Positions 3,128 to 35,598 of a DNA stretch of 39,050 nt are shown one piece after another. The notes beneath the pieces were generated by a model, which saw only the letters and a program-made list of their open reading frames with translations, had not been told where the DNA came from and ran no database searches. Location: contig CAYYDH010000001.1 in the NCBI GenBank assembly GCA_964470615.1, forward strand, positions 1 through 39,050, read 5' to 3'. The position numbers and the translations under genes are program-made. The DNA is from an uncultured Candidatus Saccharibacteria bacterium (GTDB lineage: Bacteria; Patescibacteriota; Minisyncoccia; Minisyncoccales; GWA2-38-27). Every line of letters begins with the position of its first letter. Positions within the stretch are counted from its first letter, which is position 1.

Positions 3128-3243
3128 ATTAGTTTAAAATAAAAAGGCATTATCATTTTGGCGGATTTTAAAGCTATAGTCAATTATAACACAGGCAAGG
3201 ACGGCTGAAAGTAAATACAAAACACCGTGCTCTGTTAACAAGC

Positions 3244-3263
3244 TGTGGATAATTTGTGGATTA
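3244..3263. promoter_or_regulatory. two tandem DnaA boxes upstream of dnaA
   Basis: TGTGGATAA at 3244..3252 is the exact reverse complement of the TTATCCACA consensus. TGTGGATTA at 3255..3263 has one mismatch. Confidence 0.7.
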
Positions 3264-3296
3264 ACGATTTCAGAGAATTTTTAAAAAAAGCAGAAG

Positions 3297-3325
3297 TTGA
3301 CCTCGCTTCTTTTTTTAGCTATAGT
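3297..3325 (+). promoter_or_regulatory. sigma70-type promoter of the rpmH-rnpA-yidC-jag operon
   Basis: TTGACC (3297..3302), a 17-nt spacer, then TATAGT (3320..3325). It lies 29 nt upstream of the rpmH ATG. Confidence 0.6.
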
Positions 3326-3353
3326 GGGATATTGTAAATAATAATATAAAAAC

Positions 3354-3488
3354 ATGTCGCTAACGTACAAACCAAAGAAAAAAAAGAGAAAAAAAACCCA
3401 TGGTTTTCGCTCCAGATCAAAAACCAATAAAGGAAAGCAGGTTTTGGCCAGAAGGAGAACCAAGGGGAGATGGAGAATAGCCGTCTAA
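3354..3488 (+). CDS. rpmH: 50S ribosomal protein L34
   Basis: Hand translation gives [44 protein letters not shown] (44 aa). This is the canonical L34 sequence, in the canonical position before rnpA. It falls below the ORF-track length cutoff. Confidence 0.93.
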
Positions 3489-3499
3489 AAGCTTAAATT

Positions 3500-4629: not shown

Positions 4630-5100
4630 ATGATAAGTCCAACAGAACTAGAAGAAATAAGAAAAACAATAAAGGATTTTTTTCAAAGAACAGGGCTTGA
4701 TTTAGAAGTAGAAATCCACTCCTTAGACGAGGAAGTGCTTCCTATAAAGATAAAAACAAAAGAGCCGAAGATTTTAATCGGTCACTCAGGCCAAACTTTG
4801 TTTGATATCCAGCATCTCTTGAATATTATTTCCCGACGGAAAACTACGGCCGTTGATTTTCATGTCGACCTAGATATTAATGATTATAAGGAGAAAAAAA
4901 TAGAATACCTGCGAGAAATGGCTAGGTCGTTAGCCGATGAAGTGATGCTGACTAGAAAAGAAAAAGAGCTGGCCCCGATGCCAGCTTACGAAAGACGGAT
5001 TATTCACATTGAACTATCTAAAAGGGAGGGTGTGGAAACTGAAAGTCTTGGCGAAGGCCTAGAAAGAAGGATAGTAATCAAACTTTCTACATGCTTATAA
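4630..5100 (+). CDS. jag: Jag/KhpB-like RNA-binding protein (KH + R3H)
   Basis: 156 aa with an R3H-type C-terminus (PMPAYERRIIHIELSKREGVETESLGEG). It sits directly after yidC. Confidence 0.8.
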   Translation: MISPTELEEIRKTIKDFFQRTGLDLEVEIHSLDEEVLPIKIKTKEPKILIGHSGQTLFDIQHLLNIISRRKTTAVDFHVDLDINDYKEKKIEYLREMARSLADEVMLTRKEKELAPMPAYERRIIHIELSKREGVETESLGEGLERRIVIKLSTCL

Positions 5101-6301
5101 GCCCAGCGCTCAGAATTTTCATAGACCTGGCGCAAGGATAGGGTTTTGAAGCTGTCCCGCACCAATCTTTGAAAGGAGCGTTGTCGTTTAAATTACTGTC
5201 GCTTCTCGCCATTACATAAAGCTCGGTTTCCGGGCCCCAGTCTCCGCTGCACGTTTCTCTAAAAAACACAACCAGAAAAGGACCTTCTATTTTAACGGAC
5301 AGAAATTGATGCGGGGGGAAAATATCAGTTCCGGCAGCTGCGCCATCTCTTCCCCCCAAAGTAGTTGCGCCGATCGGGAAATCGGCTGTAAGGTCAATGC
5401 AATTAGAGTCCTTAAGATCGGTAGTATATTTCTTTTCTTTGGCAGCTGTTTCTGCTCCACCACGGTTATAATCTTGTATCTCAAATAGCTGGACATACCA
5501 GTCGCTGTTAGGGTTGTTGTCGCTCAAAACAAAAACCTTTACCGAAGATGGTTTTATCGAGACATTAAAAGTTCCGACAAGGGTGCCAAGGGCCTCCTCA
5601 AACTTGTAAACAATTTGGTTTTTTCCTCCGTAATTACTCTCTTCGTAAAGTATGGCGCCATATTTTTGGTTGTTAAAGGGCACAACATTAACTTCAACGA
5701 TTTTGTCCGTGAGTTCGTTGGGTACTGCTTCGCTGATTGCAGCCAACCAGCAACTTTCATTGATTTCCTTTAATCTGTTATCTAAATCAATTTTTGCAGC
5801 CTCTTTTTGTTCTGGGGGCAGATTTAAGGCTGCTTGCCTTGCAGTATCAAATCCCCTGGCGTCAACTGGTTTTGTGCAAAGCAAAACACCGGGCGAGAGA
5901 TGAGGAAGAATTGGTCCTGTTGGAAGTTCCTGGAGGTTGAGGAGTTGAGGGTTAATGGTATTGAAGATGAGCCAGGCGCAGAATAAAATAACCAGGCCTA
6001 ATATCACGGCTGTGATCTGATTCTTGGCATCATTTCTTTGTTCCGGCCGGCCAGCTGACGATAGATACCAAAAGCCAGCTTTTATTATGGCGCCCAAAGC
6101 GATTAGTCCGCTGATCCCAATTGCAAAATAAAAAACATACAGGACGTATTCATGGAATTGGACGTCGGTTGTTGTCGGTGGCGCACTTCCGGGCACTGTT
6201 ATATAGTCAACCTCTAAGGGAGTTGCAGATTGGATTGAACAGGGAGTTAAAAAAAACAAAACAGCTATAGAGAGAATTGTTGCTGCAAAAAGATTTTTCA
6301 T
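5087..6301 (-). CDS. secreted/membrane protein: T4SS-pilin-like (VirB2/TrbC-type) N-terminal module fused to an unknown C-terminal domain
   Basis: It has a signal peptide, then LEVDY, two hydrophobic helices flanking SSAGRPEQRNDAKNQI, then INPQLLNLQ. This N-module is shared with the next two ORFs. The C-terminal ~270 aa is unrelated to the other two and contains YEESNYGG. Confidence 0.6.
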   Translation of the reverse strand: MKNLFAATILSIAVLFFLTPCSIQSATPLEVDYITVPGSAPPTTTDVQFHEYVLYVFYFAIGISGLIALGAIIKAGFWYLSSAGRPEQRNDAKNQITAVILGLVILFCAWLIFNTINPQLLNLQELPTGPILPHLSPGVLLCTKPVDARGFDTARQAALNLPPEQKEAAKIDLDNRLKEINESCWLAAISEAVPNELTDKIVEVNVVPFNNQKYGAILYEESNYGGKNQIVYKFEEALGTLVGTFNVSIKPSSVKVFVLSDNNPNSDWYVQLFEIQDYNRGGAETAAKEKKYTTDLKDSNCIDLTADFPIGATTLGGRDGAAAGTDIFPPHQFLSVKIEGPFLVVFFRETCSGDWGPETELYVMARSDSNLNDNAPFKDWCGTASKPYPCARSMKILSAGLISM

Positions 6302-6302
6302 A

Positions 6303-7550
6303 TTATTTTATTTGGCCGATTATGTTTATTATTTGGTCGCAAATTCCCATTATTTCACCTGGCAGAGAGTTAATTTGGCTAGCCTGATTTTGAATTTCCG
6401 ATACCGGGCAAGGATTGCCGCCGGAGCATTTATCTGGTTGGCAGCCGCACAATTTATCGTGGCAACCGTATCTGGCGCCCGTGAGACAGCTTGGTTGGCA
6501 TTTTGCCCCGACGTCAGAAAAACATTGATCTGGCAATTTAGCTATCTCGGTTGTCGGTGCTTCTACTTTAGTTAAAGCAGTGGCTAGATCTTTAAGCTTC
6601 TGGATGAGCTGTGTTTTGTATTGCTTTTCTTGCTCTATTTTTTGTAATTCTCGTTCAAGCTGGTTAGTTGTTGCCGGCGACGCTACTTCATTCGCTTTTT
6701 CACGAGAGATTAAGGCGTTATAAAAAGCTATTTTTTTGTCTAGAACTAAAGTGACGTTTAAGTTTAAGTCTTTTGCTTCAGCTAAAGCCCTGGTCTTATA
6801 GTAAAGCATAATATCTCTCCAGCCGACAATCTCTTTTTGTAAAGCTCCTATTCTGACTGCGTCCGGACATGGGTGAGCACCTTTTGGATATTGACCGCCG
6901 CAAAGATTCGGATCGTTTCCTGCATCTGGCCCGGCATAACACCATTTAGCTTCGCAAGAAGCGTTAGCCTCCCCTCCATTGCACAAACAAAGAGAACGAG
7001 TTCGATCGCAGTCACATTTGTCAGTGAGGGATTTTATATCCTCGGCGTTTCCTTTAGCTTTGTCAGGCAGGGTCTTTACTATATCAGCCATATCTTTTAT
7101 TCTTCTTAAAAGATCAGAAGACGGAAGGTCGGGATCCGGGTAAGAAGTAGGGCTGACTTGCGGGAGGTTAATGTTAGTCAGGCTGAGCGAGATCAACTGG
7201 GGGTTGATGTTTACTAATATCAAGTAAGAGGCGAGCAAAAGTATAATGCCCCAAAAGACAGCGACAATTTTATCTCTCGCTGCCTTAATTTTTTCTGGGT
7301 TTCCAGCCGATGTTAAAAGAATAATGCCGCCCTGGGTTAAGTTCCAAAGAGCAGTAATACCAGCCCCGGCAATAAAGAAACCGTAGATATACTTAATAAA
7401 AAGAGGTACATCTACATCGTCTAAGTTTTGCGTGTCTAGCCCGCGATAATCAACCTCTAAGCTTCTGGCAGCAAGGGCAAAACCGAATATCAAAAACAGG
7501 CTGATAGTTGCTAGAAAAAAGACAGCGATTTTTAAAGGCTTTTTATTCAT
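6303..7550 (-). CDS. T4SS-pilin-like N-terminal module fused to a Cys-rich/coiled-coil domain
   Basis: N-module: signal peptide, LEVDY, TM, TSAGNPEKIKAARDKI, TM, INPQLISLS. Two Cys clusters follow (CDCDRTRSLCLCNGGEANASCEAKWC... and CFSDVGAKCQPSCLTGARYGCHDKLCGCQPDKCSGGNPCP), separated by a helical stretch. Confidence 0.6.
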   Translation of the reverse strand: MNKKPLKIAVFFLATISLFLIFGFALAARSLEVDYRGLDTQNLDDVDVPLFIKYIYGFFIAGAGITALWNLTQGGIILLTSAGNPEKIKAARDKIVAVFWGIILLLASYLILVNINPQLISLSLTNINLPQVSPTSYPDPDLPSSDLLRRIKDMADIVKTLPDKAKGNAEDIKSLTDKCDCDRTRSLCLCNGGEANASCEAKWCYAGPDAGNDPNLCGGQYPKGAHPCPDAVRIGALQKEIVGWRDIMLYYKTRALAEAKDLNLNVTLVLDKKIAFYNALISREKANEVASPATTNQLERELQKIEQEKQYKTQLIQKLKDLATALTKVEAPTTEIAKLPDQCFSDVGAKCQPSCLTGARYGCHDKLCGCQPDKCSGGNPCPVSEIQNQASQINSLPGEIMGICDQIINIIGQIK

Positions 7551-7553
7551 GGG

Positions 7554-9668
7554 CTATTTCCCGCAGCAGTAAAAGTTTATTTGATGCTTGCACTTTTGGG
7601 TTTCTCCGCCGGCAGCGTTTAAACAGTTATTCAAACACGTCTTATATTTTCCATTCAGGGCGACAGCATAAGGGGAAGCATCTCTCTGGATATCAGCTTG
7701 GGTCATATTGGTTTCTAAATAACATTGGTATAAACAATTCTGATAGTCTGTTTCTTCTAGACAGCACTTTTCAATGTCAGTTACCTCGCCGAGCGACCCA
7801 ATTGCTTCTATGCAACTTGGGAGTACCAGCTGTGGCTGATTTGGGTCTTCAACTAGTTTCTCAGGAGGAACGTCTGTGATGCAAGTTTTCATTTCAAAAC
7901 GAATAATTCTGTCTAGGTCGGCTAAAAGGTAAGGGACGACTTCGTCAACTATCGTTACAATCCCAATTCTTTCTTTTGGATCATTTTGCGGGCTAGCGCT
8001 ATTTTGCCCTGAGTTGTTGCCTTGTTGTTTCGGTGCGCTGACCACGCCAACTATTCCCTCTTGGTAGTTGCTATTATTTTGTTGGCCTTTGCCGTCAAAT
8101 ATCTCAACTATTTTTTGGAGCTGGTTTTTGATTTCGGTCTTCGGACAAGCGCCTTCAGGATATTGCCAGCTATTATCACCGCAACGTTTGGTGCACTGAC
8201 AGCAGCAATCGCCGGCCGGCCCGCAGTCGCAGCAAACTTCATCGCAAGGTTGGCAATCGCAGAAAGAATAACATCTCTGGGAGCTACACTGGCTAACTAA
8301 GACATGAAGATAATCAACTGCATTGTGTTCCTGCTCTCCTAAATTAATTAGTTTTTCTAACCTCTCAACAATTTTATTACCAAGCTTTTCAGACCGGTCA
8401 ATAATTTCTCCGATTGCTACTTCGGTGCAGTGCTCTTTCTCTCCTTGCGTTATGCCTTCGCCGAAATCAGGAGGGAGAAGAGACAGCTCTTCGGGCAAGA
8501 TTCCTGGTTGTTCTCCCAAGATGCTGCCGCTAATCGGGCAGTAGAGAGTGGCCCATTCTTGTAGCGGGTTTATCTTTTCCCAGAAACTAATATCTGCGAA
8601 TTGCCAGCCGTAAAAGTCGTAAAAATCTTTATTAAACAGAGTTTCGGCCAGAGAACTTAGCAGGTTCAACGGGCATTCCAGCATAAACTGCTTTGCTTCC
8701 TCTAGTTTCTTTATCTCTTCTTTTATCAAGCGTATTTCCTCATTAGCCTTTGTCAGTTCTTGGACTAAGCTAGTTTTGATAGTCGTTTGTTTGTTATCTT
8801 TGTCTTGTATCGTAATATTGGTGCCGAGAAAAAGAGCTTCTAGGTTTTTTTGTTCAAGCTCTTGGATTTTATCTCTGACCATATAGCAAGGATCGCTGGT
8901 GCAGCCAGGTTTGTCCCGGCAAACATTGTCTATACATCCTTCTCCGGGGTTATCCAGCCAGCAGCAGGGTTTAGGCTCTTTGCTCATATCAGAATTGTTG
9001 CAAGTGCACTGTTCAGTAAGTTTTTGGAGTTCTGTACTTTGATCTTTTAACAGTTGGCTAAGCGCCTTAACGCTGCTAGCAATATCCCGGATTCTTTCCA
9101 TTCTGGGCTTTCTTTTGCCTATTTCTGCTTGAGGCACCTGGCTTTCAAAAATACCCTTCTCGATTATTGTACCGAATGGGACCCTGGCGTCTATTACTGA
9201 ACGAACATTTGTCTGGGGAGGGTCAGGAAGCGGGATCGGGCTGGCAGTTGGACTTGGCGCCTCAATGGTTGGTATGGTCAAATTTGGGATGCTGGGGTTG
9301 ATTACCCTTAGCACTAAGACAGAACTGAATAGGATCAATAAGCCGAAAAAGACAGCAAAAAACTGATCTTTGGCTGATTTCATTTCCTCAGCCTTTCCAG
9401 AAGAAATGAGATAGCGGACGCCGGCAATAGTCAGCATTACCAAGGCTATTACTCCTGAAACCCAGATTAATAAGACAAAAATGTATTTTACAAAAGAATA
9501 AAGAATTTCTCCTTCGCTGACGCCTGTTTTTAAAAAGTCTTGAGGGGGGTCAGCGCCGAGAACACGTGGATAAGTTACTTCCAAGGCCAAAGCAAAATGA
9601 GTGGCAAAAAGCAAAAAGATAAGAAAAACAGAAAGAAATAGGATTTGTTTTTTGTGGCCTGCCTTCAT
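7554..9668 (-). CDS. T4SS-pilin-like N-terminal module fused to a large (about 570 aa) Cys-rich/coiled-coil domain
   Basis: N-module: signal peptide, LEVTYP, TM, SSGKAEEMKSAKDQF, TM, INPSIPNLT. At least three Cys-dense clusters follow, one with 14 Cys in 49 aa (nt 8142..8288). Confidence 0.6.
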   Translation of the reverse strand: MKAGHKKQILFLSVFLIFLLFATHFALALEVTYPRVLGADPPQDFLKTGVSEGEILYSFVKYIFVLLIWVSGVIALVMLTIAGVRYLISSGKAEEMKSAKDQFFAVFFGLLILFSSVLVLRVINPSIPNLTIPTIEAPSPTASPIPLPDPPQTNVRSVIDARVPFGTIIEKGIFESQVPQAEIGKRKPRMERIRDIASSVKALSQLLKDQSTELQKLTEQCTCNNSDMSKEPKPCCWLDNPGEGCIDNVCRDKPGCTSDPCYMVRDKIQELEQKNLEALFLGTNITIQDKDNKQTTIKTSLVQELTKANEEIRLIKEEIKKLEEAKQFMLECPLNLLSSLAETLFNKDFYDFYGWQFADISFWEKINPLQEWATLYCPISGSILGEQPGILPEELSLLPPDFGEGITQGEKEHCTEVAIGEIIDRSEKLGNKIVERLEKLINLGEQEHNAVDYLHVLVSQCSSQRCYSFCDCQPCDEVCCDCGPAGDCCCQCTKRCGDNSWQYPEGACPKTEIKNQLQKIVEIFDGKGQQNNSNYQEGIVGVVSAPKQQGNNSGQNSASPQNDPKERIGIVTIVDEVVPYLLADLDRIIRFEMKTCITDVPPEKLVEDPNQPQLVLPSCIEAIGSLGEVTDIEKCCLEETDYQNCLYQCYLETNMTQADIQRDASPYAVALNGKYKTCLNNCLNAAGGETQKCKHQINFYCCGK

Positions 9669-9685
9669 TTTTATAAAAAGTGTAT

Positions 9686-10147
9686 CTAAGTAGATTCTTC
9701 TGGTTCTGGGGTACTTTCTCCCCCGCTTTCAAAAACCATCTGGAAAATGACATCAAAGATCATAAACCCGCCGATAAAAACTAACCCGACGGCGTCAGCA
9801 ATCCAAAAATCATCTAATCCAAAACAGAGGAGAATTAGCCCCACCAAATCCAGAATCAGCGCCAAGGGGAATATTATTAAACCAACTGGGTTGGTAAAAC
9901 CACCCGGGGTGCTGTTTAAATGATAGTAGACAGCGATTGTCCAGGCCGGGGCAACGCCTCCCAAATAAGGGACTATTTCTGCTAAAAGTCCGAGCCCAAG
10001 CCTTTTGAGGAGCTTTGTTAAGAGTTTTTTAGCGCTTTTGGTTAAAACAACTTTGCCCCTGCCCTTTTTTTCTTCCTGTTCTGGACCGGCCTCAGGGGAC
10101 GTTTCAGCAGCACTTTGCGAAGTTTTTTCTTCTTTGTCGTCGGGCAT
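9686..10147 (-). CDS. small membrane protein with acidic termini (hypothetical, T4SS-operon member)
   Basis: 153 aa with a charged N-terminus, 3-4 hydrophobic segments and an acidic tail (GGESTPEPEEST). It is tightly packed between the VirB4 gene and the pilin-like genes. Confidence 0.5.
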   Translation of the reverse strand: MPDDKEEKTSQSAAETSPEAGPEQEEKKGRGKVVLTKSAKKLLTKLLKRLGLGLLAEIVPYLGGVAPAWTIAVYYHLNSTPGGFTNPVGLIIFPLALILDLVGLILLCFGLDDFWIADAVGLVFIGGFMIFDVIFQMVFESGGESTPEPEEST

Positions 10148-10152
10148 AGAGC

Positions 10153-11976
10153 TTATAACCCGCCCTCAAACTCCCTTTTTGCTTCTTTTATTCTGGCTAC
10201 TTCTTCGGGGGCGGTAGTAATGAGCTGATTCTCTGCGTAAGAAGCCACTACTTCAATTAACACTCTTTTCGGCCCTGCGATAAAGATCCCTTCACCCACC
10301 GGCGATTCTAAAAGTAAGAGTTTTTCTTCTTCGGTCAAGTTGAAGGCGCTTTTAACAGTATCAATGGTAGCAGTGCTTTGTTTCATCAAAAGTTTCAGCT
10401 CTGAATTATTTATGATTGGTTGGCCGTATTCAGATTTCATAAAGTCATTGACATCTTGAGTGACAGTGGTGACTCCCAGCCAATATTTTCTAGCTCTTTT
10501 CACTGTGCCGAAGAGAAAAGAGGCGCCATCCACGTTTTTTATCAGCCACCAGGCTTCGTCGATTATCAGCATCCTTCTTTTCATTTTCGAGGTAATGGTT
10601 TTCCAGATGTATCTTAAAACCATGAAAAGGGCCATTGGTCTAAGCTCGTCTTCCATGTCGCGGATGCCAAAAACAACAAAGCGGTTCTCAATGTTGATAT
10701 TAGAGGGCTGGTTGAAAAAACCAGAATACACTCCTTTAGTAAATCTTTGGATTCTTCTTACCAGAGAGTCTGTTCCTTCCATTGCAGAAAGGACTTCTTC
10801 TAAGTCGCTCATCGTTGGGAAGGGAAGCCCTTCTTTTTTGCCCCAGGTTGCAGGATCGGAATCTGGCGTTATATCCCTGGCTGCGTAAGTTTCAGTGATA
10901 GCAGTATCAATCATGCTGTCTTCTTCTGGTGTCAGCCCGCTTAACATTACTCGGATTAAACCTATCAGATTAACGATATTTGTTCTCAGGACGTCCTGAG
11001 GCATTTCCCCTTCTTTGGGCTGGGGTAGGTCGAAGGGATTAATATGGTTCGGCGATGAAAGAGAAATATTAAAGAAAGACCCTCCGACTGCATCAGAAAG
11101 GAACTTGTATTCATTTTCCGGATCAATTACCACCACATCAGTTCCCATCATCAAATACCTTAATATCTCCAACTTTATAGCATAGCTTTTGCCTCCGCCT
11201 GAAACTCCGAAAATAACCGAATTGGCATTGGCTAATGAGAATCGGTCAAAAAGCACGAGAGAGTTGTTATGGCGGTTGATTCCGTAGAGAATTCCTTCGT
11301 TGGAGCTTAGGTCAAAGGATACAAAAGGAAAGGAAGCAGAAAGCGGACTGGTATTCATTAAGGTGGTTACCATCAAGAGATCTAAAGCATAGGGGGAAGA
11401 ACAGGTAAATCCTTCTTTTTGCTGGTAAAGAGCGGGCTTAATGTATATTAGGCGAGATTCAAAGATTGAGCGTAGATTTGTTTCTACGTCTCTCAATTCT
11501 TCTTCATTGTCTCCGTAGACAGTAATGTACAAGCTGAAGCGGAACATTCTTTCTTGAGCGGTTTGAAGCTTGTCGCGCAGGTCTTCCAAATCCTGGTAAG
11601 CAACCTCTAGAGATGGGTCGCGAATCAATCCTTTTTCTTCCCTTTCTATTAGCTCAGCCTGGATCTCAGTAACCTTTTTACGGAGGTTTTTCAAAACCCT
11701 TTCGCTTTCAACCGGATGAAAGTGGAAAGAAATGTCTAAAGGCACATTCATGTTTATCAAGGGAGACAGCCAACCGGTATTCAAATATCGGGGATAGGAG
11801 AAAATAAAATAGGTTCGGGCCATTCTTTCACCCAGTTTCAGATAGTTTTGTTTCGCTTCAATAAAAGAAGGCGCGATAATATCGTTAATATTCAAGGGTT
11901 CTTCACTGGGAAGCGCCTCGTCGGCTCGTTTTGTTTTTGATAAAAAAGGAATCTTAAACATAATTTTACTATTCAA
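10153..11976 (-). CDS. VirB4/TrbE/PrgJ-type T4SS ATPase, ATPase (C-terminal) portion
   Basis: 607 aa with Walker A GVSGGGKSYAIK and Walker B RRMLIIDEAWW. The DUF87/AAA_10-like layout is typical of conjugative VirB4 ATPases. Confidence 0.85.
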   Translation of the reverse strand: MNSKIMFKIPFLSKTKRADEALPSEEPLNINDIIAPSFIEAKQNYLKLGERMARTYFIFSYPRYLNTGWLSPLINMNVPLDISFHFHPVESERVLKNLRKKVTEIQAELIEREEKGLIRDPSLEVAYQDLEDLRDKLQTAQERMFRFSLYITVYGDNEEELRDVETNLRSIFESRLIYIKPALYQQKEGFTCSSPYALDLLMVTTLMNTSPLSASFPFVSFDLSSNEGILYGINRHNNSLVLFDRFSLANANSVIFGVSGGGKSYAIKLEILRYLMMGTDVVVIDPENEYKFLSDAVGGSFFNISLSSPNHINPFDLPQPKEGEMPQDVLRTNIVNLIGLIRVMLSGLTPEEDSMIDTAITETYAARDITPDSDPATWGKKEGLPFPTMSDLEEVLSAMEGTDSLVRRIQRFTKGVYSGFFNQPSNINIENRFVVFGIRDMEDELRPMALFMVLRYIWKTITSKMKRRMLIIDEAWWLIKNVDGASFLFGTVKRARKYWLGVTTVTQDVNDFMKSEYGQPIINNSELKLLMKQSTATIDTVKSAFNLTEEEKLLLLESPVGEGIFIAGPKRVLIEVVASYAENQLITTAPEEVARIKEAKREFEGGL

Positions 11977-12598
11977 TTAATTCAGTTGGTATTTCTGGGT
12001 AATAACCTCTTTCTGCTTCAGTAGGATGGTATAGACTCCAGAACAATTCAATCAATTCTGGATTGTTCAAGGGAGCAGACCCTAAACCGCAGTTTCTTAA
12101 ACCATGCATGACAAATTCGACCCTTTGCATTAATTGGATTTTGGCGCGGGAGAAGCTTTCCTCGGTCAGAGCGGTTTTAACAAACCTTTTGGTCAGGTTG
12201 ATGCCCTGGGTTTCAGTAAGGAAAAAGGGCACAATGACATAAAAGGTTTTTTGCATAATCGTTCCTTCCTCTAATATTCCTTCTACGAAGTTATGATACT
12301 CGGATATTTGGAGCTTCAGCAAATCGTTATTTTCCCGACCTTCAATTTCTTTAAGCTTTGCTAGATACCCAGTCATATTAAGGCGCCTGGACTGGACAAG
12401 AATCTGGCAGGGAAAATCTAGCGAGTTCAGAAAGTTTTGGAATTGATAAATAATAGCATTTTGCTCGTCCTCTGATTTTAAGGCAAAGTTTAAAGACGGA
12501 ACTCCGATTACGGTCCTTAAGCTTTTGTCTTTTAAAATCAAAACTCCTTCTTTGATTTGCTCTATTTCTAAAAAGTCTTGGGTTGAAAGATTGGCCAT
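11969..12598 (-). CDS. VirB4 N-terminal-domain-like protein (a separate ORF overlapping the ATPase ORF by 8 nt)
   Basis: 209 aa. The pattern TQDFLEIEQIKEGVLILKD...VIGVPSLNFALKSEDEQNAIIYQFQNFLNSLDFPCQILVQS matches the N-terminal region of Gram-positive VirB4/TraE/PrgJ proteins. 209 + 607 aa is about the length of a full VirB4. Confidence 0.6.
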   Translation of the reverse strand: MANLSTQDFLEIEQIKEGVLILKDKSLRTVIGVPSLNFALKSEDEQNAIIYQFQNFLNSLDFPCQILVQSRRLNMTGYLAKLKEIEGRENNDLLKLQISEYHNFVEGILEEGTIMQKTFYVIVPFFLTETQGINLTKRFVKTALTEESFSRAKIQLMQRVEFVMHGLRNCGLGSAPLNNPELIELFWSLYHPTEAERGYYPEIPTELIE

Positions 12599-12599
12599 G

Positions 12600-13010
12600 C
12601 TATTTTTTTCTTGTTTCTAAGCGGGTGAACAGGTCGCCCAGCCGGCTTTTTTTAGAAACTCTTAAAGACGACTCTGCTGTTTGTATTTCTTCTGGTACTG
12701 GTGGCTTTTCGATAATAATCGGCGGAACATTTTTCTTTTTCCATAGGTAAACCTTTGGCTTAAAAAGAAAAAAGAACATATTTTTTATAAAAATCGGCAG
12801 TGGTATTTTTTCTACCTTCAAAAAGGCCAGGGCGCAGGCTATTCCCATGATAAAAATTGTTATGGCAATAAAAACCTGGAGAGATGGGATCATGAAATAA
12901 AGGAAAAGGCAAAACCCGCCAGCGCTTCCTACAAAGACAAACTGTTTAAAAGTTAATGGGCCGACTATTTTTCCCTCTTTTTCTATAAATTGGGGGACAG
13001 TGAAGTTCAT
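12600..13010 (-). CDS. PrgI-family (VirB3-like) small membrane protein
   Basis: 136 aa. The N-terminus VPQFIEKEGKIVGPLTFKQFVFV followed by two TM helices is the PrgI-family pattern. It sits immediately upstream of VirB4. Confidence 0.6.
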   Translation of the reverse strand: MNFTVPQFIEKEGKIVGPLTFKQFVFVGSAGGFCLFLYFMIPSLQVFIAITIFIMGIACALAFLKVEKIPLPIFIKNMFFFLFKPKVYLWKKKNVPPIIIEKPPVPEEIQTAESSLRVSKKSRLGDLFTRLETRKK

Positions 13011-13012
13011 AT

Positions 13013-13450
13013 TTATTCTATTGGTTCTCGATACGGATCATTTTTTGTTATTGTTTCTTTGGGCGGTTCAGGTTTTTCCTCTTGGCCCGTTGGCTTTATT
13101 TCAATTTCTGGAATTTCGCTTATTTTTGTTTGGTAAAGCGCCTCCAGACTTTCTCTAACTGGTAAGAAGATAGAATTGTTGATTCTCGCCGACAGTTGTT
13201 CAGCAACGTTTTTTTCCAGAATTAATTCCTTTTCAAAAACTTCGGCTAGTTCGCTTGGTAAGAGCAACCCCAGCAGGACATAGCCTGTTTGCTTGCTTAC
13301 TTCGAACATTACTTTCCCGTCGGTAATACCGACTTGGTTGCAGGCAGCGCCGATACTGACGCCTGATTTTTCAGCAAAGAGCACTTCCTGGAGATCCTTA
13401 GGGAGCTTATTGTATAAAATCCGAAGCTGTTCTTTAGGATAATTTGGCAT
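13013..13450 (-). CDS. hypothetical protein, first gene of the T4SS-like operon
   Basis: 145 aa with a helical domain and an acidic Pro/Glu tail. There is a 2-nt gap to the PrgI-like gene. No motif was recognised. Confidence 0.5.
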   Translation of the reverse strand: MPNYPKEQLRILYNKLPKDLQEVLFAEKSGVSIGAACNQVGITDGKVMFEVSKQTGYVLLGLLLPSELAEVFEKELILEKNVAEQLSARINNSIFLPVRESLEALYQTKISEIPEIEIKPTGQEEKPEPPKETITKNDPYREPIE

Positions 13451-13524
13451 TGCGGAAAACTAAAACAAGAAATGAAATAATTCGTTCCTTTATTTTATCA
13501 TAAACAAAAAAAGGCAACAAACTA

Positions 13525-13552
13525 TTGACAATCCTTCTTGGGGGGTTAAAGT
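13525..13552 (+). promoter_or_regulatory. candidate promoter of the greA transcription unit (long leader)
   Basis: TTGACA (13525..13530), a 16-nt spacer, then TAAAGT (13547..13552). It lies about 220 nt upstream of the greA ATG. Confidence 0.4.
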
Positions 13553-13730
13553 GAAAGCAGAGACACCAACATGGCAGATCAAGCAAGAAAAATCTATAGC
13601 ATCGCCATTTTTAGGACTATTATTCTTAATGGTGTGTTTTGCATCATCAGTGTAAAACCATCAATCCTATTAAGCGGGGAGGTCTCATTACCAAATATTA
13701 GTTAACATCTTAAGTCTAATTTGGAACCCG

Positions 13731-18932: not shown

Positions 18933-19154
18933 TTGGCTTCTGCAAGGGGCGAGTTCTGCGTAGCAGGGAAATACTACTTTGTTATAGACACGGACAATAG
19001 TGTTTACCCTTGTACCTTTCTTTCTTCGCCGCAATTCAAGATCGGCGTATGGGAAAACGGCCAGATAAAGATTACAAGACCCGTTTCTCATGACGGCAGT
19101 TTTTGCGTGGCAGAAAGAGAGCTTATTACTAGCACGCTATCAGGCGTTGCTTAG
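18933..19154 (+). pseudogene. truncated C-terminal (SPASM/twitch-like) fragment of a radical SAM enzyme
   Basis: CVAGKYYFVIDTDNSVYPC matches the C-x-A-G...G/N-x-V-x-P-C auxiliary-cluster motif. No radical-SAM core precedes it. The frame stays open upstream into the amidohydrolase start region without an ATG. Confidence 0.5.
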
Positions 19155-19155
19155 G

Positions 19156-19179
19156 GCCGGCGCTTTGCGCTGGCTTTTT
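19156..19179 (+). terminator. intrinsic terminator
   Basis: GCCGGCGC-TTT-GCGCTGGC (one G-U pair) followed by TTTTT. Confidence 0.6.
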
Positions 19180-19186
19180 ATATAAT

Positions 19187-19215
19187 TTGACATTCTCCGT
19201 TTTAGTAGTTAGAAT
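19187..19215 (+). promoter_or_regulatory. promoter in front of the first GC-rich gene
   Basis: aaTTTGACA context: TTGACA (19187..19192), a 17-nt spacer, then TAGAAT (19210..19215). Confidence 0.5.
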
Positions 19216-19305
19216 AAATTTAGTTCGCCGAGAACGGCCTGCGCTTAGCTTGCCGAAGCATTCTCGGCTTTAAAAACAGATAATCAGGAAGAGGGAGAGA
19301 CAGAT

Positions 19306-20925
19306 ATGAACGGGAAACACGGGATCTGGCTGTTAGGACTGGTCACCTTTCTGGTTCTGGGCTCTGGAGCGGCAGCCGATGAAGCTACGGATGCTTTTGA
19401 GTCGCTTTATGGCGACGAAATGAAGCAAGTTTCATCTACGCCGTCGCCGGCAGACAACGTAGTTTTGGCAGCCAAACTTTTAGAGGCTGCCCGAGGAATT
19501 GCCGAACAACCAGCTTTTCTCACCGTGCTTTGCGAAAAGGTTTACGAGCTTGGCGCCGAGGATTTGACCGGGTATCCTGCTGCTGTATTTGCCATGGAGC
19601 TCCTGGCTGAAAAGGCGCCCGATAAGAAGGTAGAGTGTCTTCAGAAATGCGCTTCTCTTGTCCAGGGCGAGTACTCTAAGGTTCGCGACGAAGCGAAGAA
19701 AAGAACAGGCTGTTTGCTTGTTCTGGCGCTGAAGAACGTTGCTGATGCCCAGGTTTCTCTTGGTGACTTGGATAGTGCCACAGCGACGCTGAGACAAGCC
19801 ATGGACGTAGCTTCCTCCGCCGGTTTTTCTTCGTCAGCCCTTCAAGCCAAGCTGACCACGCTTTTGCGGCAGCAGGCGGCAGAGAAACAAACTACTGCTT
19901 TAAAGGTTAAGCTTGTAGCCAACCCCAACGACACTGCTTCGCGCAAGAAACTGGTTCATCTGTATTTGGTAGAATTGGACAATGCGGCCGAAGCAGCTAA
20001 CTTCCTTGGAGAGACCTTGGACGGAACGACGCGAAAGCATGTACCCGAAGCTAGCATGCCTATCGACGAAGTCCCGGAAACGGTTTGCCTGGGACTTGCC
20101 AAATGGTACGCTAGCTTAGCCGAAACACCGGTGATGACAAGCAGGGCTGCCATGCTTTGGCGAGCCAAAGCATACTATGAGAGATTTCTTGACCTTCATC
20201 GGGTGCAAGACCTTTCTAGGGCCGCTAATACTTTAGCCCTGAATAAGGTTGAGGAATCTTTGGCAAAACTCGGGCCAACGAGCCAGCAAAGCAATGGGTC
20301 AAGCTCTTGGATCGACTGCTTGAGGCTGGTCGAACTGCCAAGGCACGCAGTCAGCGGGAAGTGGGAGAGGAAAGGTACCCAGCTCTTCGTTGCCGAAGAG
20401 GGGAAAAGCTGTCTTGCCACTATTCCGCTTTCACCGGAATCAAGCTACCAACTGCAGGTTGTCTTCACGAAAGTATCGGGTAACGGTCAGGTTGGTGTTG
20501 CTCTGCCCATTAAGTCCGCGTCCTGCGACATTGTCCTGCAGCCTGATATTTTCGGACTCGAGAAGATAAAAGAGGAAAACGGCAAAGAGGGCGGGAAATG
20601 GGTTGGTTTCGGTCCAGTTGTCAGCGGACGGGACTACTGCCTGGATATCAAGGTTGAAATCCGCGGTAGCCAGGCTGCCATTGATACGGGCTTGGACGGC
20701 AAATGCCTTATTCAATGGCAAGGACCGTCTTCTTCGCTCCGAGCCACTCCAGGGTGGTCTTTGCCGGAAACCAAGTTCCTAAAGCTGCATGCCTGGAATG
20801 CTGCGGTCCTATTTCGCAGCGTACGTCTGAAGGCAGCTCCAGAGGAACCTAAGGTGCTCAGCCAAGCCTTGTTAGACTATATCAACAACAAGGCTGCGTT
20901 TTTCGGCGTAGCGCCTAAGAAGTGA
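19306..20925 (+). CDS. secreted protein: helical (TPR-like) N-domain plus beta-rich C-domain (possibly ConA-like/DUF1080-like)
   Basis: 539 aa with a signal peptide (MNGKHGIWLLGLVTFLVLGSGAAADE) and a GGGAGAG Shine-Dalgarno sequence 7 nt upstream. The C-terminal pattern is GKWERKGTQLFVAEEG...YQLQVVFTKVSGNGQVGVAL. GC is high (36/60 in 19321..19380). Confidence 0.7.
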   Translation: MNGKHGIWLLGLVTFLVLGSGAAADEATDAFESLYGDEMKQVSSTPSPADNVVLAAKLLEAARGIAEQPAFLTVLCEKVYELGAEDLTGYPAAVFAMELLAEKAPDKKVECLQKCASLVQGEYSKVRDEAKKRTGCLLVLALKNVADAQVSLGDLDSATATLRQAMDVASSAGFSSSALQAKLTTLLRQQAAEKQTTALKVKLVANPNDTASRKKLVHLYLVELDNAAEAANFLGETLDGTTRKHVPEASMPIDEVPETVCLGLAKWYASLAETPVMTSRAAMLWRAKAYYERFLDLHRVQDLSRAANTLALNKVEESLAKLGPTSQQSNGSSSWIDCLRLVELPRHAVSGKWERKGTQLFVAEEGKSCLATIPLSPESSYQLQVVFTKVSGNGQVGVALPIKSASCDIVLQPDIFGLEKIKEENGKEGGKWVGFGPVVSGRDYCLDIKVEIRGSQAAIDTGLDGKCLIQWQGPSSSLRATPGWSLPETKFLKLHAWNAAVLFRSVRLKAAPEEPKVLSQALLDYINNKAAFFGVAPKK

Positions 20926-20938
20926 GGAAACAAATTAA

Positions 20939-20978
20939 AGCGTGGTAGATGAAATCTTCTATCACGCTTTTTCTTTTT
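20939..20978 (+). terminator. intrinsic terminator
   Basis: An 11-bp stem, AGCGTGGTAGA / TCTATCACGCT (one G-U pair), followed by TTTTTCTTTTT. Confidence 0.7.
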
Positions 20979-21032
20979 GCTAGAATGTCGTTCTGGGGCG
21001 GTAAAACAACCGCTTCAAGAGATAGGTAAAAT

Positions 21033-21061
21033 TTGACTAAGATTTATGAATCTAGCATAAT
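21033..21061 (+). promoter_or_regulatory. promoter in front of the second GC-rich gene
   Basis: aaaaTTTGACT context: TTGACT (21033..21038), a 17-nt spacer, then CATAAT (21056..21061). Confidence 0.45.
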
Positions 21062-21123
21062 ATAATAAGAAGCACGGTGCAGTTCTTTGAGAATTGAAAA
21101 ACCAAACGGAAGGGAGAACCAAA

Positions 21124-22617
21124 ATGATGCGCGCAAGAACGATGCTGGGTTTGCTGCTGGTTGCAGGGATGGTAGGATTTGTTGTCGCAACGGCGTCTGC
21201 TGAAGCCCCGCAACAGTTTTTCCCTGGCCAAGAAATCCAGGTGAAAGATCAAATGGTCGGTCCGACGAGGCACTATGTTGTGTACTTGCCCAGCGACTAC
21301 GTAGCCGAACGCTCTTGGCCTGCTATTTTTTGCTACCACGGGAAAGGCGGCAGGCCGATAACGCTTCCCTACAAAGACTTTACCGACGGCAAGGGTTTTG
21401 TTCTTGTGGGTATGGACTATTTCTGGGACAGCATGAACGTCCACAGCGAAATCGGCCAGGATGTGCGGAATATCAAACGGCTTGTCCCGCAACTAGCCAA
21501 ACAGTTGAACCTGGATCCCAACCAGTTGTTTATCGCCGGCAACAGCGCCGGCGGATTCGCGGCCAGCGGTATTGCCGAAGCCACGCCGTCTTTTTGGGCA
21601 GGCGTTATGATTTTAGGCGCTGGACGATATGAAAATCTTCATAAGCGTCCAGCTATTCTTCCTGGCACAGGTTCTTCTTTCCCGATCTCGGGATTTGGTG
21701 TCGCAATGCCGAAAAGGCCCAAAGACGCCAATTCGCTCGCAGGTAGAGGCATCTATTTGGGGGCGGGTGAGCGGGATACAAATCTTTGGTGGGCCGAAAC
21801 AGCTAGAGATTATTACCAAAGTATCGGAGCCGATGTCACCTTCGAAACTTATAAAGGCGTCGGTCACGGAACTTATCCCGGTACAGAGGTAATAAAGAAC
21901 TGGCTCTATTCAAACGGGCCCTTGAAACAAGCAGAAAGCGGGATAGGCAAAGCCCAGGCTATGCAAAACTCCGGAGAACTGGGAAAAGCCTACGAGCTGT
22001 TTGTTGCGCTAGCTTCATTGACAGGAAACAATGAGAAGCTGGCCGAGATTCTGGGCCAGGCTGCTAAAGCAGCCAATCAGCTGGCCGGCGACGCTGAGGC
22101 AAGGATTGGAGCAGCTGAAACCGCGGCGGCCGATGGTCGCTACGAAGAAGCGCTCAAGATTCTTTCTCGGGTTTCCGCTTCCTACAAGGGCTCTAGTTTC
22201 GGCGGACGAGCAAAAGTCCTTATACCCAAGATGCGGGGCGAGGCGAATGCTAGGAAAAACGCTGAACAGTCCCGGGCGCTTGAGCTTGAGGGCAAGGCCA
22301 GAGAAGCAGAGAAGGTCAAAGATTACCTTACCGCCTTCAAGCTCTACGAGCAGTATCTTACGCTGTTCAAAGGGATTGCTCGGTATGAGTTCGTTAAGAA
22401 CCACTTTGAGTCGCTGAAAGCCGACCCAAAGATTCAGGACGTTCTCCACAAGCAGGAAGCTGATCGCGATTGCCCAGGATGGCTTAAGGAAGCAGACAGG
22501 CTTCTTGAAGAGGGCAAAAACGACGAGGCAAAGCGGCGCTTGCAGAGAATCTTAGATAAGTACGGAGATACGGATTGGGCCGGAAAAGCGAAAGAACGGC
22601 TCAAGAAATTGGACTAG
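21124..22617 (+). CDS. secreted alpha/beta-hydrolase (esterase/depolymerase-like) with a helical TPR-like C-terminal half
   Basis: It has a signal peptide (MMRARTMLGLLLVAGMVGFVVATASAEA), HGKGG, the nucleophile elbow GNSAGG and GVGHG. I prefer the ATG at 21124, which has a GGGAG Shine-Dalgarno sequence, over the TTG at 21094. GC is high (39/60 in 21541..21600). Confidence 0.8.
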   Translation: MMRARTMLGLLLVAGMVGFVVATASAEAPQQFFPGQEIQVKDQMVGPTRHYVVYLPSDYVAERSWPAIFCYHGKGGRPITLPYKDFTDGKGFVLVGMDYFWDSMNVHSEIGQDVRNIKRLVPQLAKQLNLDPNQLFIAGNSAGGFAASGIAEATPSFWAGVMILGAGRYENLHKRPAILPGTGSSFPISGFGVAMPKRPKDANSLAGRGIYLGAGERDTNLWWAETARDYYQSIGADVTFETYKGVGHGTYPGTEVIKNWLYSNGPLKQAESGIGKAQAMQNSGELGKAYELFVALASLTGNNEKLAEILGQAAKAANQLAGDAEARIGAAETAAADGRYEEALKILSRVSASYKGSSFGGRAKVLIPKMRGEANARKNAEQSRALELEGKAREAEKVKDYLTAFKLYEQYLTLFKGIARYEFVKNHFESLKADPKIQDVLHKQEADRDCPGWLKEADRLLEEGKNDEAKRRLQRILDKYGDTDWAGKAKERLKKLD

Positions 22618-22623
22618 CACTTT

Positions 22624-22653
22624 GAAGCGCTTCGACAACCGAAGCGCTTTTTA
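22624..22653 (+). terminator. intrinsic terminator ending the GC-rich island
   Basis: GAAGCGCTTCG-ACAAC-CGAAGCGCTT followed by TTTTATTAT. Confidence 0.75.
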
Positions 22654-22713
22654 TTATGCTAGCTAGCCTCGGCGCTTAGTGCTAGTTTTATTTTTGGGTG
22701 GAAATGTTAAAAT

Positions 22714-23920: not shown

Positions 23921-24005
23921 TACCCTTAATTTTATAAAAATCTTTTTAGCGACAAGCGATCAAAAAGGGAAAGATATAAAATCCTTAATCAGGACGGGAT
24001 TTTAC

Positions 24006-24848: not shown

Positions 24849-24849
24849 T

Positions 24850-25692: not shown

Positions 25693-25703
25693 CCTATAAA
25701 AAT

Positions 25704-26348: not shown

Positions 26349-26354
26349 ACTAAC

Positions 26355-35429: not shown

Positions 35430-35598
35430 TTATAGGATTAAACTTGAGGCTGGGGGGCTTGGAGTTTTCCGCAGATGGATGATTTGGCGCGAGCGAAGTC
35501 AATCCTCGGGGAGGTTCTAAACTTTTGTACCACTTAAGTTAGACCCCCCAGCCTCAAGCTTAATTATGACCGGCCTCGCCTTTTGGCGGGGCCTTTTT
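35430..35598 (+). ncRNA. unclassified small transcript of about 165 nt (cis-antisense RNA, or mRNA for a 20-aa peptide)
   Basis: It is bounded by the promoter above and a plus-oriented intrinsic terminator. A perfect 15-bp closing stem (CTTGAGGCTGGGGGG 35443..35457 with CCCCCCAGCCTCAAG 35544..35558) encloses 86 nt. There is no plus-strand protein gene for 1.3 kb downstream. Confidence 0.5.
35572..35598 (+). terminator. intrinsic terminator, plus-strand oriented
   Basis: GGCCUCGCC-UUUU-GGCGGGGCC (one G-U pair) followed by UUUUUAUU. On the minus strand the same hairpin has an A-C mismatch and no U-tract. Confidence 0.7.

Follow-up and report, generated by a model that had tools for sequence, protein, structure and literature searches.

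A type IV secretion-like core operon with three pilin-fusion proteins beside the probable replication origin of a Patescibacteria genome

The operon and its motor module

The window, that is, the whole stretch of DNA analysed here, is an entire contig of 39,050 bp (CAYYDH010000001.1, assembly GCA_964470615.1; both of its ends are contig ends) from an uncultured bacterium deposited as Candidatus Saccharibacteria, and it carries between positions 5087 and 13450, on the minus strand, an eight-gene operon that resembles the core of a type IV secretion system (T4SS). In transcription order, the open reading frames (ORFs) code for proteins of 145, 136, 209, 607, 153, 704, 415 and 404 aa and are spaced by 2, 1, −8, 5, 17, 3 and 1 nt, which confirms the coordinates of the eight tightly packed ORFs described in the original prediction, made from the letters alone, with gaps of 1–17 nt or an 8-nt overlap. 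At its 3′ end the last gene runs 14 nt into the convergent jag gene, and a 270-bp intergenic region (13451–13720) separates the first gene from the divergent greA and is the expected site of the operon promoter. A sigma-70 consensus scan found no minus-strand site in this region upstream of the operon, and promoter and terminator consensus scans gave counts no higher than those in shuffled sequence (14 against 13.1, and 9 against 11.4), so that co-transcription is argued from the spacing alone.

Families were assigned by scanning with Pfam or NCBIfam those non-overlapping ORFs, 100 aa or longer, that were taken as genes (overlapping alternative-frame ORFs were excluded), and relatives were collected by scanning one genome per species, which gave 80 loci whose VirB4 is 61–78% identical to the one encoded here. 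These nearest relatives, ranked by identity and not by a tree, are all metagenome-assembled genomes (MAGs) of Patescibacteria, labelled Nealsonbacteria, Paceibacterota, Parcubacteria or generically, one of them being a complete 639-kb Nealsonbacteria genome. The copy described here is that of a Nealsonbacteria-like member of the Paceibacteria.

The second gene (12600–13010, minus strand like all the others) codes for the 136-aa protein, a small PrgI/VirB3-like membrane protein that matches PF12666 (E 3.2e-7; 31.2 bits, cut-off 27) and has two transmembrane (TM) helices, at residues 24–42 and 46–64. It is kept at the same position in 70 of the 80 related loci and would serve as a membrane anchor for VirB4. 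The motor of the system is the product of the fourth gene (10153–11976), a 607-aa VirB4-family ATPase composed of the central and C-terminal P-loop domains, which aligns with positions 183–732 of the 752 in the NCBIfam model conju_CD1110 (E 7e-107; 358.5 bits, equivalog cut-off 325), with the VirB4 model of Mycoplasma integrative and conjugative elements (ICEs; E 4.4e-90) and with Pfam P-loop_TraG (E 2.7e-31), and whose Walker motifs are intact (Walker A GVSGGGKS at residue 257, Walker B MLIIDE at residue 469). The best curated models for this protein, CD1110 and the Mycoplasma ICE one, are of the MPF_FATA type, whereas its match to the archaeal CedB is weak (E 6.4e-12).

The N-terminal part that is absent from the ATPase is encoded by the preceding gene (11969–12598), whose 209-aa TrsD-like product aligns with positions 104–253 of VirB4_plasma, the Mycoplasma ICE VirB4 model (E 1.5e-9), and with positions 5–119 of conju_CD1110 (E 7e-6), and has a weak TrsD/TraD match (E 0.0047); the correspondence follows from the alignment of both proteins to the same full-length models. 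This VirB4 N-terminal domain, a gene of its own, is present in 77 of the 80 related loci, and its orthologue in one of them (L081) carries a TraC-like domain, PF26593. In 74 of 74 loci the N-domain and the ATPase have an ORF each, and the pairs occur in all three relative frames, which argues that the split is ancient and real and not the product of a frameshift; it corresponds to the TrsD and VirB4 pair of the pGO1/pIP501 subclass of monoderm T4SSs. The PrgI and split VirB4 that had been predicted are both upheld, PrgI and the ATPase by hidden Markov model (HMM) scores above the curated cut-offs and the N-domain by its matches to full-length VirB4 models.

Two small lineage-specific proteins accompany the motor genes and behave as core components of the motor module. 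The first gene of the operon (13013–13450) codes for a soluble 145-aa protein, with no TM helix according to its hydropathy, in which a low-complexity linker joins a helical domain of about 110 aa to an invariant C-terminal D-x-Y-R-E-x-I-E motif (G61, Y140 and E142 are invariant in the family alignment). It has no Pfam, NCBIfam or PDB-sequence match; a profile of the family run against PDB sequences gave nothing meaningful, and Pfam scans of the single members yielded scattered weak hits only. Orthologues are found directly upstream of prgI in at least 50 of the 80 related loci and about eight more are recognised through the C-terminal motif, at least 58 in total. The D.YRE.IE motif does not occur in any other protein family of these loci and, being confined to this one, was rejected as a general targeting or secretion signal; the protein may be a cytoplasmic accessory or adaptor.

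The fifth gene (9686–10147) codes for a small polytopic membrane protein of 153 aa, which does have, as had been proposed, a membrane-protein character, with two to three hydrophobic helices in its hydropathy profile, and belongs to a lineage-specific family whose gene always follows virB4. Positional orthologues (97–211 aa) are present in 54 loci, 31 of them homologous by phmmer, and the gene follows virB4 even in loci that have no pilin cassette. The family has the motifs SPEG..LD..G...DDF and GE.IP..G..P.WT..VY.L in common; in the protein described here GE.IP..G..P.WT..VY.L precedes LD..G...DDF...GG.M, whereas most orthologues have them in the reverse order, and judged by the motifs this looks like a circular permutation. 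No member of the family matched VirB6/TrbL or other known T4SS families at E 0.1, and in the Pfam and PDB-sequence searches there were only scattered weak matches among those listed.

Three hairpin-anchored proteins with large ectodomains

The last three genes, pil1 (7554–9668, 704 aa), pil2 (6303–7550, 415 aa) and pil3 (5087–6301, 404 aa), code for pilin-fusion proteins that have in common an N-terminal region of about 125 aa with the order leader, LEV.Y, hydrophobic helix, SAG.PE...AK loop, second helix and INPQ. Hydropathy and AlphaFold2 (AF2) models agree on a leader followed by a hairpin of two hydrophobic helices with a short K/R-rich loop, modelled as H49-81/H86-116 in pil3 and H48-80/H85-115 in pil2, while in pil1 the hydrophobic segments are residues 9–27, 63–81 and 105–123. 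Sites of the A-x-A type precede the conserved LEV.Y motif, and the leader would be cleaved there. Two of the proteins exceed the cut-off of the T4SS_pilin family PF18895 (26.6 bits), pil3 with 45.4 bits (E 8.8e-12) and pil1 with 30.3 bits (E 4.6e-7); pil2 falls below it (14.4 bits, E 0.041) but BLASTP shows clear homology with the other two (E 3e-24 and 9e-17), which in the case of pil1 (E 3e-24) spans 356 residues. The NCBI family NF045849, “pilin-like conjugal transfer protein” of Mycoplasma ICEs, also matches pil3 (E 1.2e-9) and pil2 (E 0.0015). Three VirB2/TrbC-like pilin modules had been proposed and all three stand at this level; the accompanying statement that Gram-positive T4SSs have no VirB2 pilin is not absolute, since the MPF_FATA-type ICEs of Mollicutes encode that pilin-like family.

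Large size is common among the carriers of the module. A custom HMM found 120 hairpin-module ORFs in 55 related loci, with a median length of 498 aa; 116 of them exceed 200 aa and four are shorter than 150 aa. When 1.84 billion representative proteins were searched exhaustively with the 98-aa module, 12,539 clusters were obtained at E ≤ 1e-3, and 142 of the best 150 have at least 300 aa. A small stand-alone pilin was not found on the contig. Some proteins (P0105, P0084, P0107, P0110 and P0189) contain from 3 to about 16 tandem pilin-type hairpins per polypeptide, without internal leaders; they could be VirB6-like polytopic proteins derived from the pilin hairpin, or gene-calling read-through of tandem arrays.

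Behind the common module, the ectodomains (280–570 aa) differ among the three proteins. The 570-aa ectodomain of pil1 contains two Cys-rich/coiled-coil modules, with 36 Cys that all follow residue 220, and has orthologues in 17 loci, always as the first of the array. The pil2 model has a mean pLDDT (the AF2 confidence score) of 82.8, with values of at least 90 in most blocks of the ectodomain from about residue 150. Behind the hairpin it shows two helices and a Cys-rich beta knot, from which a long antiparallel coiled coil leads to a second Cys knot and C-terminal helices, with the coiled coil formed by helices 231–286 and 292–327 and the Cys-rich beta elements at 185–205 and 352–376; among 32 homologues there are 14 invariant columns, 8 of them Cys. 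In the pil3 model (pLDDT 75.2), a helical segment leads to a beta-rich C-terminal domain that begins at residue 184. Foldseek comparison of both models with the PDB gave nothing at E ≤ 0.001, and VirB5/TraC-like folds were absent from its results; the coiled-coil matches of pil2 (XaxA and others) were rejected as generic. For pil3, weak and repeated betagamma-crystallin matches (3so1, 3hzb; probability 0.7–0.9, E 0.07–0.25), together with a Y-x4-Y-x-G motif in its sequence (YEESNYGG), suggest that the modelled ectodomain is probably betagamma-crystallin-like.

In a number of related loci (L065, L033, L027, L043, L050, L046 and others) the virB4–jag interval contains Cys-rich secreted proteins (20–39 Cys) that have a signal peptide and no hairpin. 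They and the second module of the 704-aa protein carry a common C..EIP(I/V)GE motif, and this module seems to exist as a separate gene in other genomes.

Each of the three ectodomains has its own orthologues, and the order pil1-pil2-pil3 is found in 11 loci (pil1-pil2 in a further five) and is held even where the cassette has moved 4–8 kb away; since orthology and order are conserved, the trio represents distinct components rather than antigenic or interchangeable variants. The ectodomains have a median identity of 31–35%, compared with 67% for VirB4, and this fast evolution fits surface or host contact. Some pil2 orthologues (P0065 and P0074) include an M23 peptidase. In P0065 (locus L081, 6827–8665), an otherwise collinear positional orthologue, the peptidase is inserted inside the first Cys knot, after the residue equivalent to C190 of pil2, and P0029 is a further fusion of pilin module and M23, so that a pilin-fusion protein can itself contain the wall hydrolase that is missing.

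Chromosomal setting, inheritance and missing components

The operon abuts the origin gene block, as had been noticed, and the order jag-yidC-rnpA-rpmH/dnaA-dnaN is confirmed, rpmH being a 44-aa gene at 3354–3488. Two DnaA boxes lie at 3244–3263, between dnaA and rpmH, a perfect one at 3244 (TGTGGATAA) and one with one mismatch at 3255, and the region 3128–3499 is the probable oriC. The cumulative GC skew is lowest near 2 kb and then climbs to about 34 kb. The operon is 2–10 kb from the probable origin and, lying on the minus strand to the right of it, on the lagging-strand side, would be transcribed towards the origin, head-on to replication; its orientation relative to the origin is the same in all related loci.

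Comparison of synteny across genomes of the candidate phyla radiation (CPR), which had been suggested as a check, bears out that the operon order recurs among the 80 related loci, in the form unk145-prgI-trsD-virB4-(small TM)-(pilin cassette)-jag/yidC/rnpA (other strand)-dnaA-dnaN, with jag as a neighbour in 58 and dnaA in 51. The same arrangement is found in about 60 species-level Nealsonbacteria/Paceibacteria genomes. VirB4 and DnaA have equal median identities (67%), which are correlated (r = 0.75, n = 46), and the fixed site together with this co-variation argues that the operon is passed on vertically as part of the chromosome and is not a mobile element. In 16 relatives, the families that flank it most often are housekeeping ones (class A penicillin-binding protein, YebC, RuvC, tyrosyl-tRNA synthetase and KsgA). 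The distance between virB4 and jag is bimodal in the 58 loci, at most 0.94 kb in 24 of them and 3.7–9.6 kb in the other 34, and in several genomes the pilin cassette lies 4–8 kb upstream instead.

Several components of complete conjugation machineries were not found. No coupling protein (T4CP), relaxase, TrbL/VirB6, VirB8, or SLT, CHAP or M23 domain was detected among the scanned ORFs, nor any integrase or element boundary on the contig, and neither the operon proteins nor 34 orthologues of the small TM protein matched VirB6, TrbL or CedA, remote homology being possible. The original prediction had reported the absence of a T4CP, relaxase, VirB6, VirB8 and hydrolase over at least 8 kb downstream; none is indeed on the contig, but the downstream side, in the sense of transcription, measures only 5.1 kb to the contig end. 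Likewise, the description of the system as one without a coupling protein holds for these 39 kb, to which the absence of T4CP, relaxase, VirB6 and VirB8 applies rather than to the genome, and a survey found VirD4-like T4CPs in 2,918 of 3,035 genomes (PMC12102498). Among the 25 most frequent of 75 flanking families in 16 related loci there was no T4CP, relaxase, VirB6 or VirB8 family.

As for wall enzymes, in L004, L008, L010, L011, L013, L016 and other loci a co-directional ORF of some 650 aa directly precedes the operon, about 2 kb upstream of the 145-aa gene. The flanks of the 16 loci include 12 ORFs with class A penicillin-binding-protein domains (Transgly and Transpeptidase), maybe different from the 650-aa ORFs, and CHAP or LysM proteins occur within 10 kb in a few relatives; here the divergent greA takes that place, with no wall enzyme nearby.

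These data bear on the possibility that the locus is an ordinary conjugation system, an ICE or its remnant, whose relaxase, T4CP, VirB6, VirB8 and hydrolase are encoded elsewhere in the genome. Its top curated models are indeed those of conjugative VirB4 families (CD1110 and Mycoplasma ICE VirB4), T4CP homologues are common elsewhere in Patescibacteria genomes (PMC12102498) and the contig represents only 39 kb of the genome, but the site next to oriC is fixed in about 60 species-level genomes, the divergence of VirB4 tracks that of DnaA, and integrase, relaxase, T4CP and element boundary are absent from the window, as such families are from the most frequent flanks of the 16 relatives. Moreover, only 109 relaxases were counted in the 3,035 genomes, and in Southlakia epibionticum the distant T4CP is dispensable whereas the T4SS is essential (PMC12102498), making this explanation very improbable.

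The rest of the contig codes for greA, metabolic genes, radical-SAM proteins, an AsnRS/AspRS-type (asparaginyl- or aspartyl-tRNA) synthetase, a two-component pair, ruvB, a PilB-type ATPase and tsaE, and no RNA gene was detected on the contig with Rfam or by a tRNA scan. Positions 19000–22700, with about 50% G+C against 30–44% elsewhere on the contig, form an island that may have been horizontally acquired; it holds a 539-aa ORF (19306–20925) with no family match and a 507-aa ORF (21094–22617) that combines an esterase/PHA-depolymerase-like (PHA, polyhydroxyalkanoate) alpha/beta-hydrolase part with tetratricopeptide (TPR) repeats. It is followed on the plus strand (22754–27875) by a low-G+C stretch (32–36%) with an unassigned 388-aa ORF, three radical-SAM ORFs (24006–24848, 24850–25692 and 26355–27875) and a TehB-like methyltransferase (25704–26348), and this stretch could be a peptide- or cofactor-modification cluster. 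On the minus strand, a PilB/GspE-type ATPase (35597–36907; T2SSE, E 2.3e-111), a type IV pilus motor, is encoded 22 kb from the T4SS operon, with no other pilus genes recognised beside it, and a 390-aa protein with two lamin-tail domains (33198–34370; LTD, E 2.7e-30) adjoins ruvB; LTD proteins recur in the flanks of related loci. At the contig end, a truncated secreted-protein gene (37598–39050, plus strand, running off the end) has a product that combines a signal peptide with a linker of about 110 aa rich in Pro and Thr, a Cys-rich segment and a large uncharacterised domain, and repetitive DNA at 37.7–38.0 kb yields spurious opposite-strand ORFs.

Interpretation and relation to known systems

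Similar CPR loci had been mentioned when the operon was first described, and the combination of parts found here is that of the published Patescibacteria T4SS (PMC12102498, PMC10633639, PMC12857230). Transposon sequencing showed that the T4SS cluster of S. epibionticum, which contains a series of predicted pilins and no recognisable relaxase or coupling protein, is essential for growth on the host (Wang 2023, PMC10633639), and the same authors remarked that Gram-positive conjugative T4SSs lack pili (PMC10633639). A survey of 3,035 genomes (Quinonero-Coronel 2025, PMC12102498) defined a VirB4 clade of Patescibacteria that is monophyletic and nested in MPF_FATA. TrsD was the commonest virB4 partner and PrgI/VirB3 was also present; there were 441 VirB2 arrays of 2–11 genes in 383 assemblies and PF18895 members near virB4 in 1,135 assemblies, VirB6 and VirB8 were scarce, relaxases almost absent, and the VirD4-like T4CPs common and almost always distant from virB4. 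The system is found near dnaA/dnaN/rnpA in Paceibacteria and Microgenomatia, and the survey authors reached the same non-conjugative conclusion (PMC12102498); Nealsonbacteria genomes are among those surveyed. A review repeats these points (2025, PMC12857230), and genes for T4SS-pilin-domain proteins were among the most highly expressed ones for extracellular proteins of unknown function in methanogen-parasitising Paceibacteria (Kuroda 2024, PMC10936435).

The identity of the locus as a Patescibacteria T4SS is very probable, and the Patescibacteria-clade T4SS derives from monoderm MPF_FATA conjugation machinery. As a whole, the locus is best explained as the vertically inherited chromosomal core operon of such a system, devoted to host attachment or exchange and not to conjugation, a reading that is given a probability of about 0.6. 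All the elements of the original prediction that can be tested on the contig hold, the modules have HMM support and no conjugation genes are adjacent. Its statement that the function is not established holds only in part, since an orthologous system, including the pilin array, is essential to S. epibionticum in its epibiotic growth (PMC10633639).

In characterised T4SSs, VirB4 dislocates VirB2 from the membrane and drives pilus assembly. By analogy, the split VirB4 would form a hexamer docked at the membrane by PrgI, and probably also by the small polytopic TM protein, and would spend ATP to extract the three hairpin modules from the membrane, in the way that VirB4 handles the VirB2 pilin; it is because VirB4 acts so in characterised systems that extraction of the fusion proteins is proposed. 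The extracted proteins would then be assembled into a wall-spanning surface structure whose Cys-rich coiled-coil stalk and crystallin-like domains may touch the host cell, an apparatus for episymbiotic host attachment and probably macromolecule exchange rather than conjugation. Assembly and host contact by this mechanism are put at a little less than even odds.

Several observations weigh against this reading. Neither an assembly nor a filament or substrate has been seen for any T4SS of Patescibacteria (PMC12857230), the literature going only as far as a “potential to elaborate conjugative pili”, with no pilus of this kind reported (PMC12857230). In the analysis itself, hhalign of the hairpin profile with eight plasmid-borne MPF_T VirB2/TrbC proteins gave a probability of 0.8% (E 0.07), although the alignment is in register, helix to helix; the operon proteins have no match to PF04956 (TrbC/VirB2) at E ≤ 1, and the hairpin-module profile found no solved pilin among PDB sequences at E ≤ 10. 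The link to classical TrbC/VirB2 that had been implied is only transitive and, in terms of sequence, runs through P0105, a protein of 1,775 aa with at least 14 tandem hairpins that matches both PF18895 (E 6e-92) and, over the whole protein, PF04956 (E 1e-23): its best PF04956 stretch is residues 10–106, the first module, which the profile of the clade's modules aligns with at a probability of 86% (E 4.9e-6). The pilin label, taken from family names and topology, is plausible, but a domain of 300–600 aa per subunit is hard to reconcile with the canonical five-start VirB2 filament, and there is no sign of a VirB6-like platform, which VirB2 polymerisation needs in known systems. Finally, promoter and terminator scans give nothing on co-transcription of the eight genes, and no pilin cassette lies between virB4 and jag in 24 of the 58 loci, so that core and cassette are separable and their functional link is inferred from adjacency alone.

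The same facts would suit a plainer account, in which the hairpin would merely anchor the three large proteins, as surface adhesins or wall proteins, in the membrane, and their place beside the VirB4 core would be a matter of synteny only: the cassette is missing from that site in those 24 loci and 4–8 kb off in others, homology to bona fide VirB2 is not demonstrable directly, and 404–704 aa is far from pilin size. However, the module is a conserved family (PF18895, 12,539 clusters) that is found near virB4 in 1,135 assemblies (PMC12102498) and connects transitively to TrbC/VirB2, the pilin genes of S. epibionticum lie inside the T4SS cluster and are as essential as the rest (PMC10633639), and the gaps to the neighbouring operon genes are of 1–17 nt, all of which leaves plain adhesins an outside chance.

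A more specific form of the attachment reading, itself unlikely, is that the T4SS of Nealsonbacteria-like Paceibacteria has an architecture not described before, in which a VirB6-less split-VirB4 motor assembles the three proteins into one hetero-oligomeric wall-spanning host-contact organelle, in which the hairpin would be a handle that VirB4 can extract and not the building block of a thin pilus. Its parts would be the double Cys-rich protein, the Cys-knotted coiled-coil stalk (with an M23 hydrolase in relatives) and a betagamma-crystallin-like tip.

Uptake, rather than attachment, would be the primary function if the system were an import machine like the archaeal Ced/Ted, a conduit for host DNA, nucleotides or other macromolecules. 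Ced and Ted are domesticated, relaxase-less T4SS derivatives with VirB4, VirB2-like and VirB6-like components that import DNA (PMC9905601), Patescibacteria lack nucleotide and amino-acid synthesis (PMC12102498, PMC10633639), and import has been proposed both by the survey authors (PMC12102498) and in the FEMS review (PMC12857230). The weak CedB match of the ATPase also points that way, yet its score is far below those of the conjugative VirB4 families; no CedA/VirB6-like channel protein was detected in the operon, the bulky ectodomains speak against a simple hollow pilus, and there is no experimental evidence of uptake via any Patescibacteria T4SS. Import as the main role is judged unlikely, about as much so as the single organelle, and it overlaps the attachment-or-exchange explanation without excluding it.

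The opposite direction of transport, injection of effector proteins into the host with the fusion proteins as needle or tip, has in its favour the suggestion that the S. epibionticum system “may instead export proteins” (Wang et al., PMC10633639) and the existence of protein-secreting T4SSs without a T4CP, such as Ptl and Brucella VirB (PMC12102498, PMC12857230). Neither a candidate effector nor a secretion signal turned up (the YRE.IE motif occurs in the 145-aa family only), and no chaperone or adaptor families were detected; effector export is accordingly rated well below import, on a par with plain adhesins.

Under the preferred reading, of a core operon for host attachment or exchange, the locus adds no new system, the headline being already known from papers of 2023–2025, and the residual novelty is the architecture of the pilin-fusion trio. 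It represents a compact and well-conserved Paceibacteria version with three distinct surface components that have been modelled and two unnamed conserved accessory proteins, of a T4SS on which the one genetically tractable member depends for its life as an epibiont. If the hairpins are handles for the export of large ectodomains by VirB4, the known VirB4/VirB2 repertoire would be extended, and the trio would provide concrete targets (antibodies, tags) for imaging the symbiont–host interface in Nealsonbacteria–methanogen co-cultures.

With the classical MPF_T VirB2/TrbC pilins, such as Agrobacterium VirB2, the fusion proteins share a leader and two hydrophobic helices with a short basic loop, but the classical precursors have about 100–120 aa (98–121 aa in the eight genes compared), in contrast to 404–704 aa here, and need VirB6 and VirB5, neither of which was found in this locus. 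The archaeal Ced/Ted systems (PMC9905601) are similar in being domesticated chromosomal T4SS derivatives of cells with a monoderm-type envelope, with a VirB4-like ATPase and no relaxase or T4CP, and the VirB2-like hairpin protein TedC has a leader cleaved by signal peptidase, a leader being present in the hairpin proteins here too; they differ by their VirB6-like CedA/TedA channel, small pilins, lipid-containing pili (seen by cryo-electron microscopy) and unsplit ATPase, and the sequence similarity is marginal.

The Mycoplasma ICE module (Mbov_0395 pilin-like, Mbov_0397 VirB4; CDS15–CDS17) provides the best NCBIfam match for the N-domain and is also a minimal set without VirB1 and VirB8, although all scores against the Mycoplasma ICE models are below the equivalog cut-offs. 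Unlike the present locus, it belongs to a mobile ICE whose VirB4 is full-length and which also encodes a T4CP (CDS5) and a VirB6-like protein with eight TM helices (CDS16), and its hairpin protein of about 80 aa is called VirB3-like in a review of those ICEs. The MPF_FATA plasmids pGO1 and pIP501 (TrsC-TrsD-TrsE) have the same order of VirB3-like protein, TrsD and VirB4 ATPase and are likewise of monoderm type, without outer-membrane core proteins, but they encode a relaxase, a T4CP, a VirB1-type hydrolase and VirB6-like and VirB8-like proteins and no pilin, whereas none of those five was detected here and pilin-type modules are present.

The published accounts of the Patescibacteria-clade T4SS (S. 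epibionticum SEML1_0006–0019 and the survey) describe an array of divergent paralogous pilins, as opposed to the ordered trio of 404–704-aa ectodomain fusions found here, and no discussion of ectodomain fusions, an ordered trio, the M23 insertion or the two small families was found in them, so that the two extra conserved small proteins are unnamed there. The S. epibionticum cluster also contains VirB6-like and peptidase/lysozyme genes, which are both absent from the cluster here, the M23 domain of relatives being inside pil2. With this system the operon nevertheless shares VirB4 with an adjacent TrsD-like gene and PrgI/VirB3, a tandem PF18895 VirB2-like array next to virB4 with neither relaxase nor T4CP nearby and, as in other Paceibacteria, a chromosomal position beside dnaA/dnaN/rnpA.

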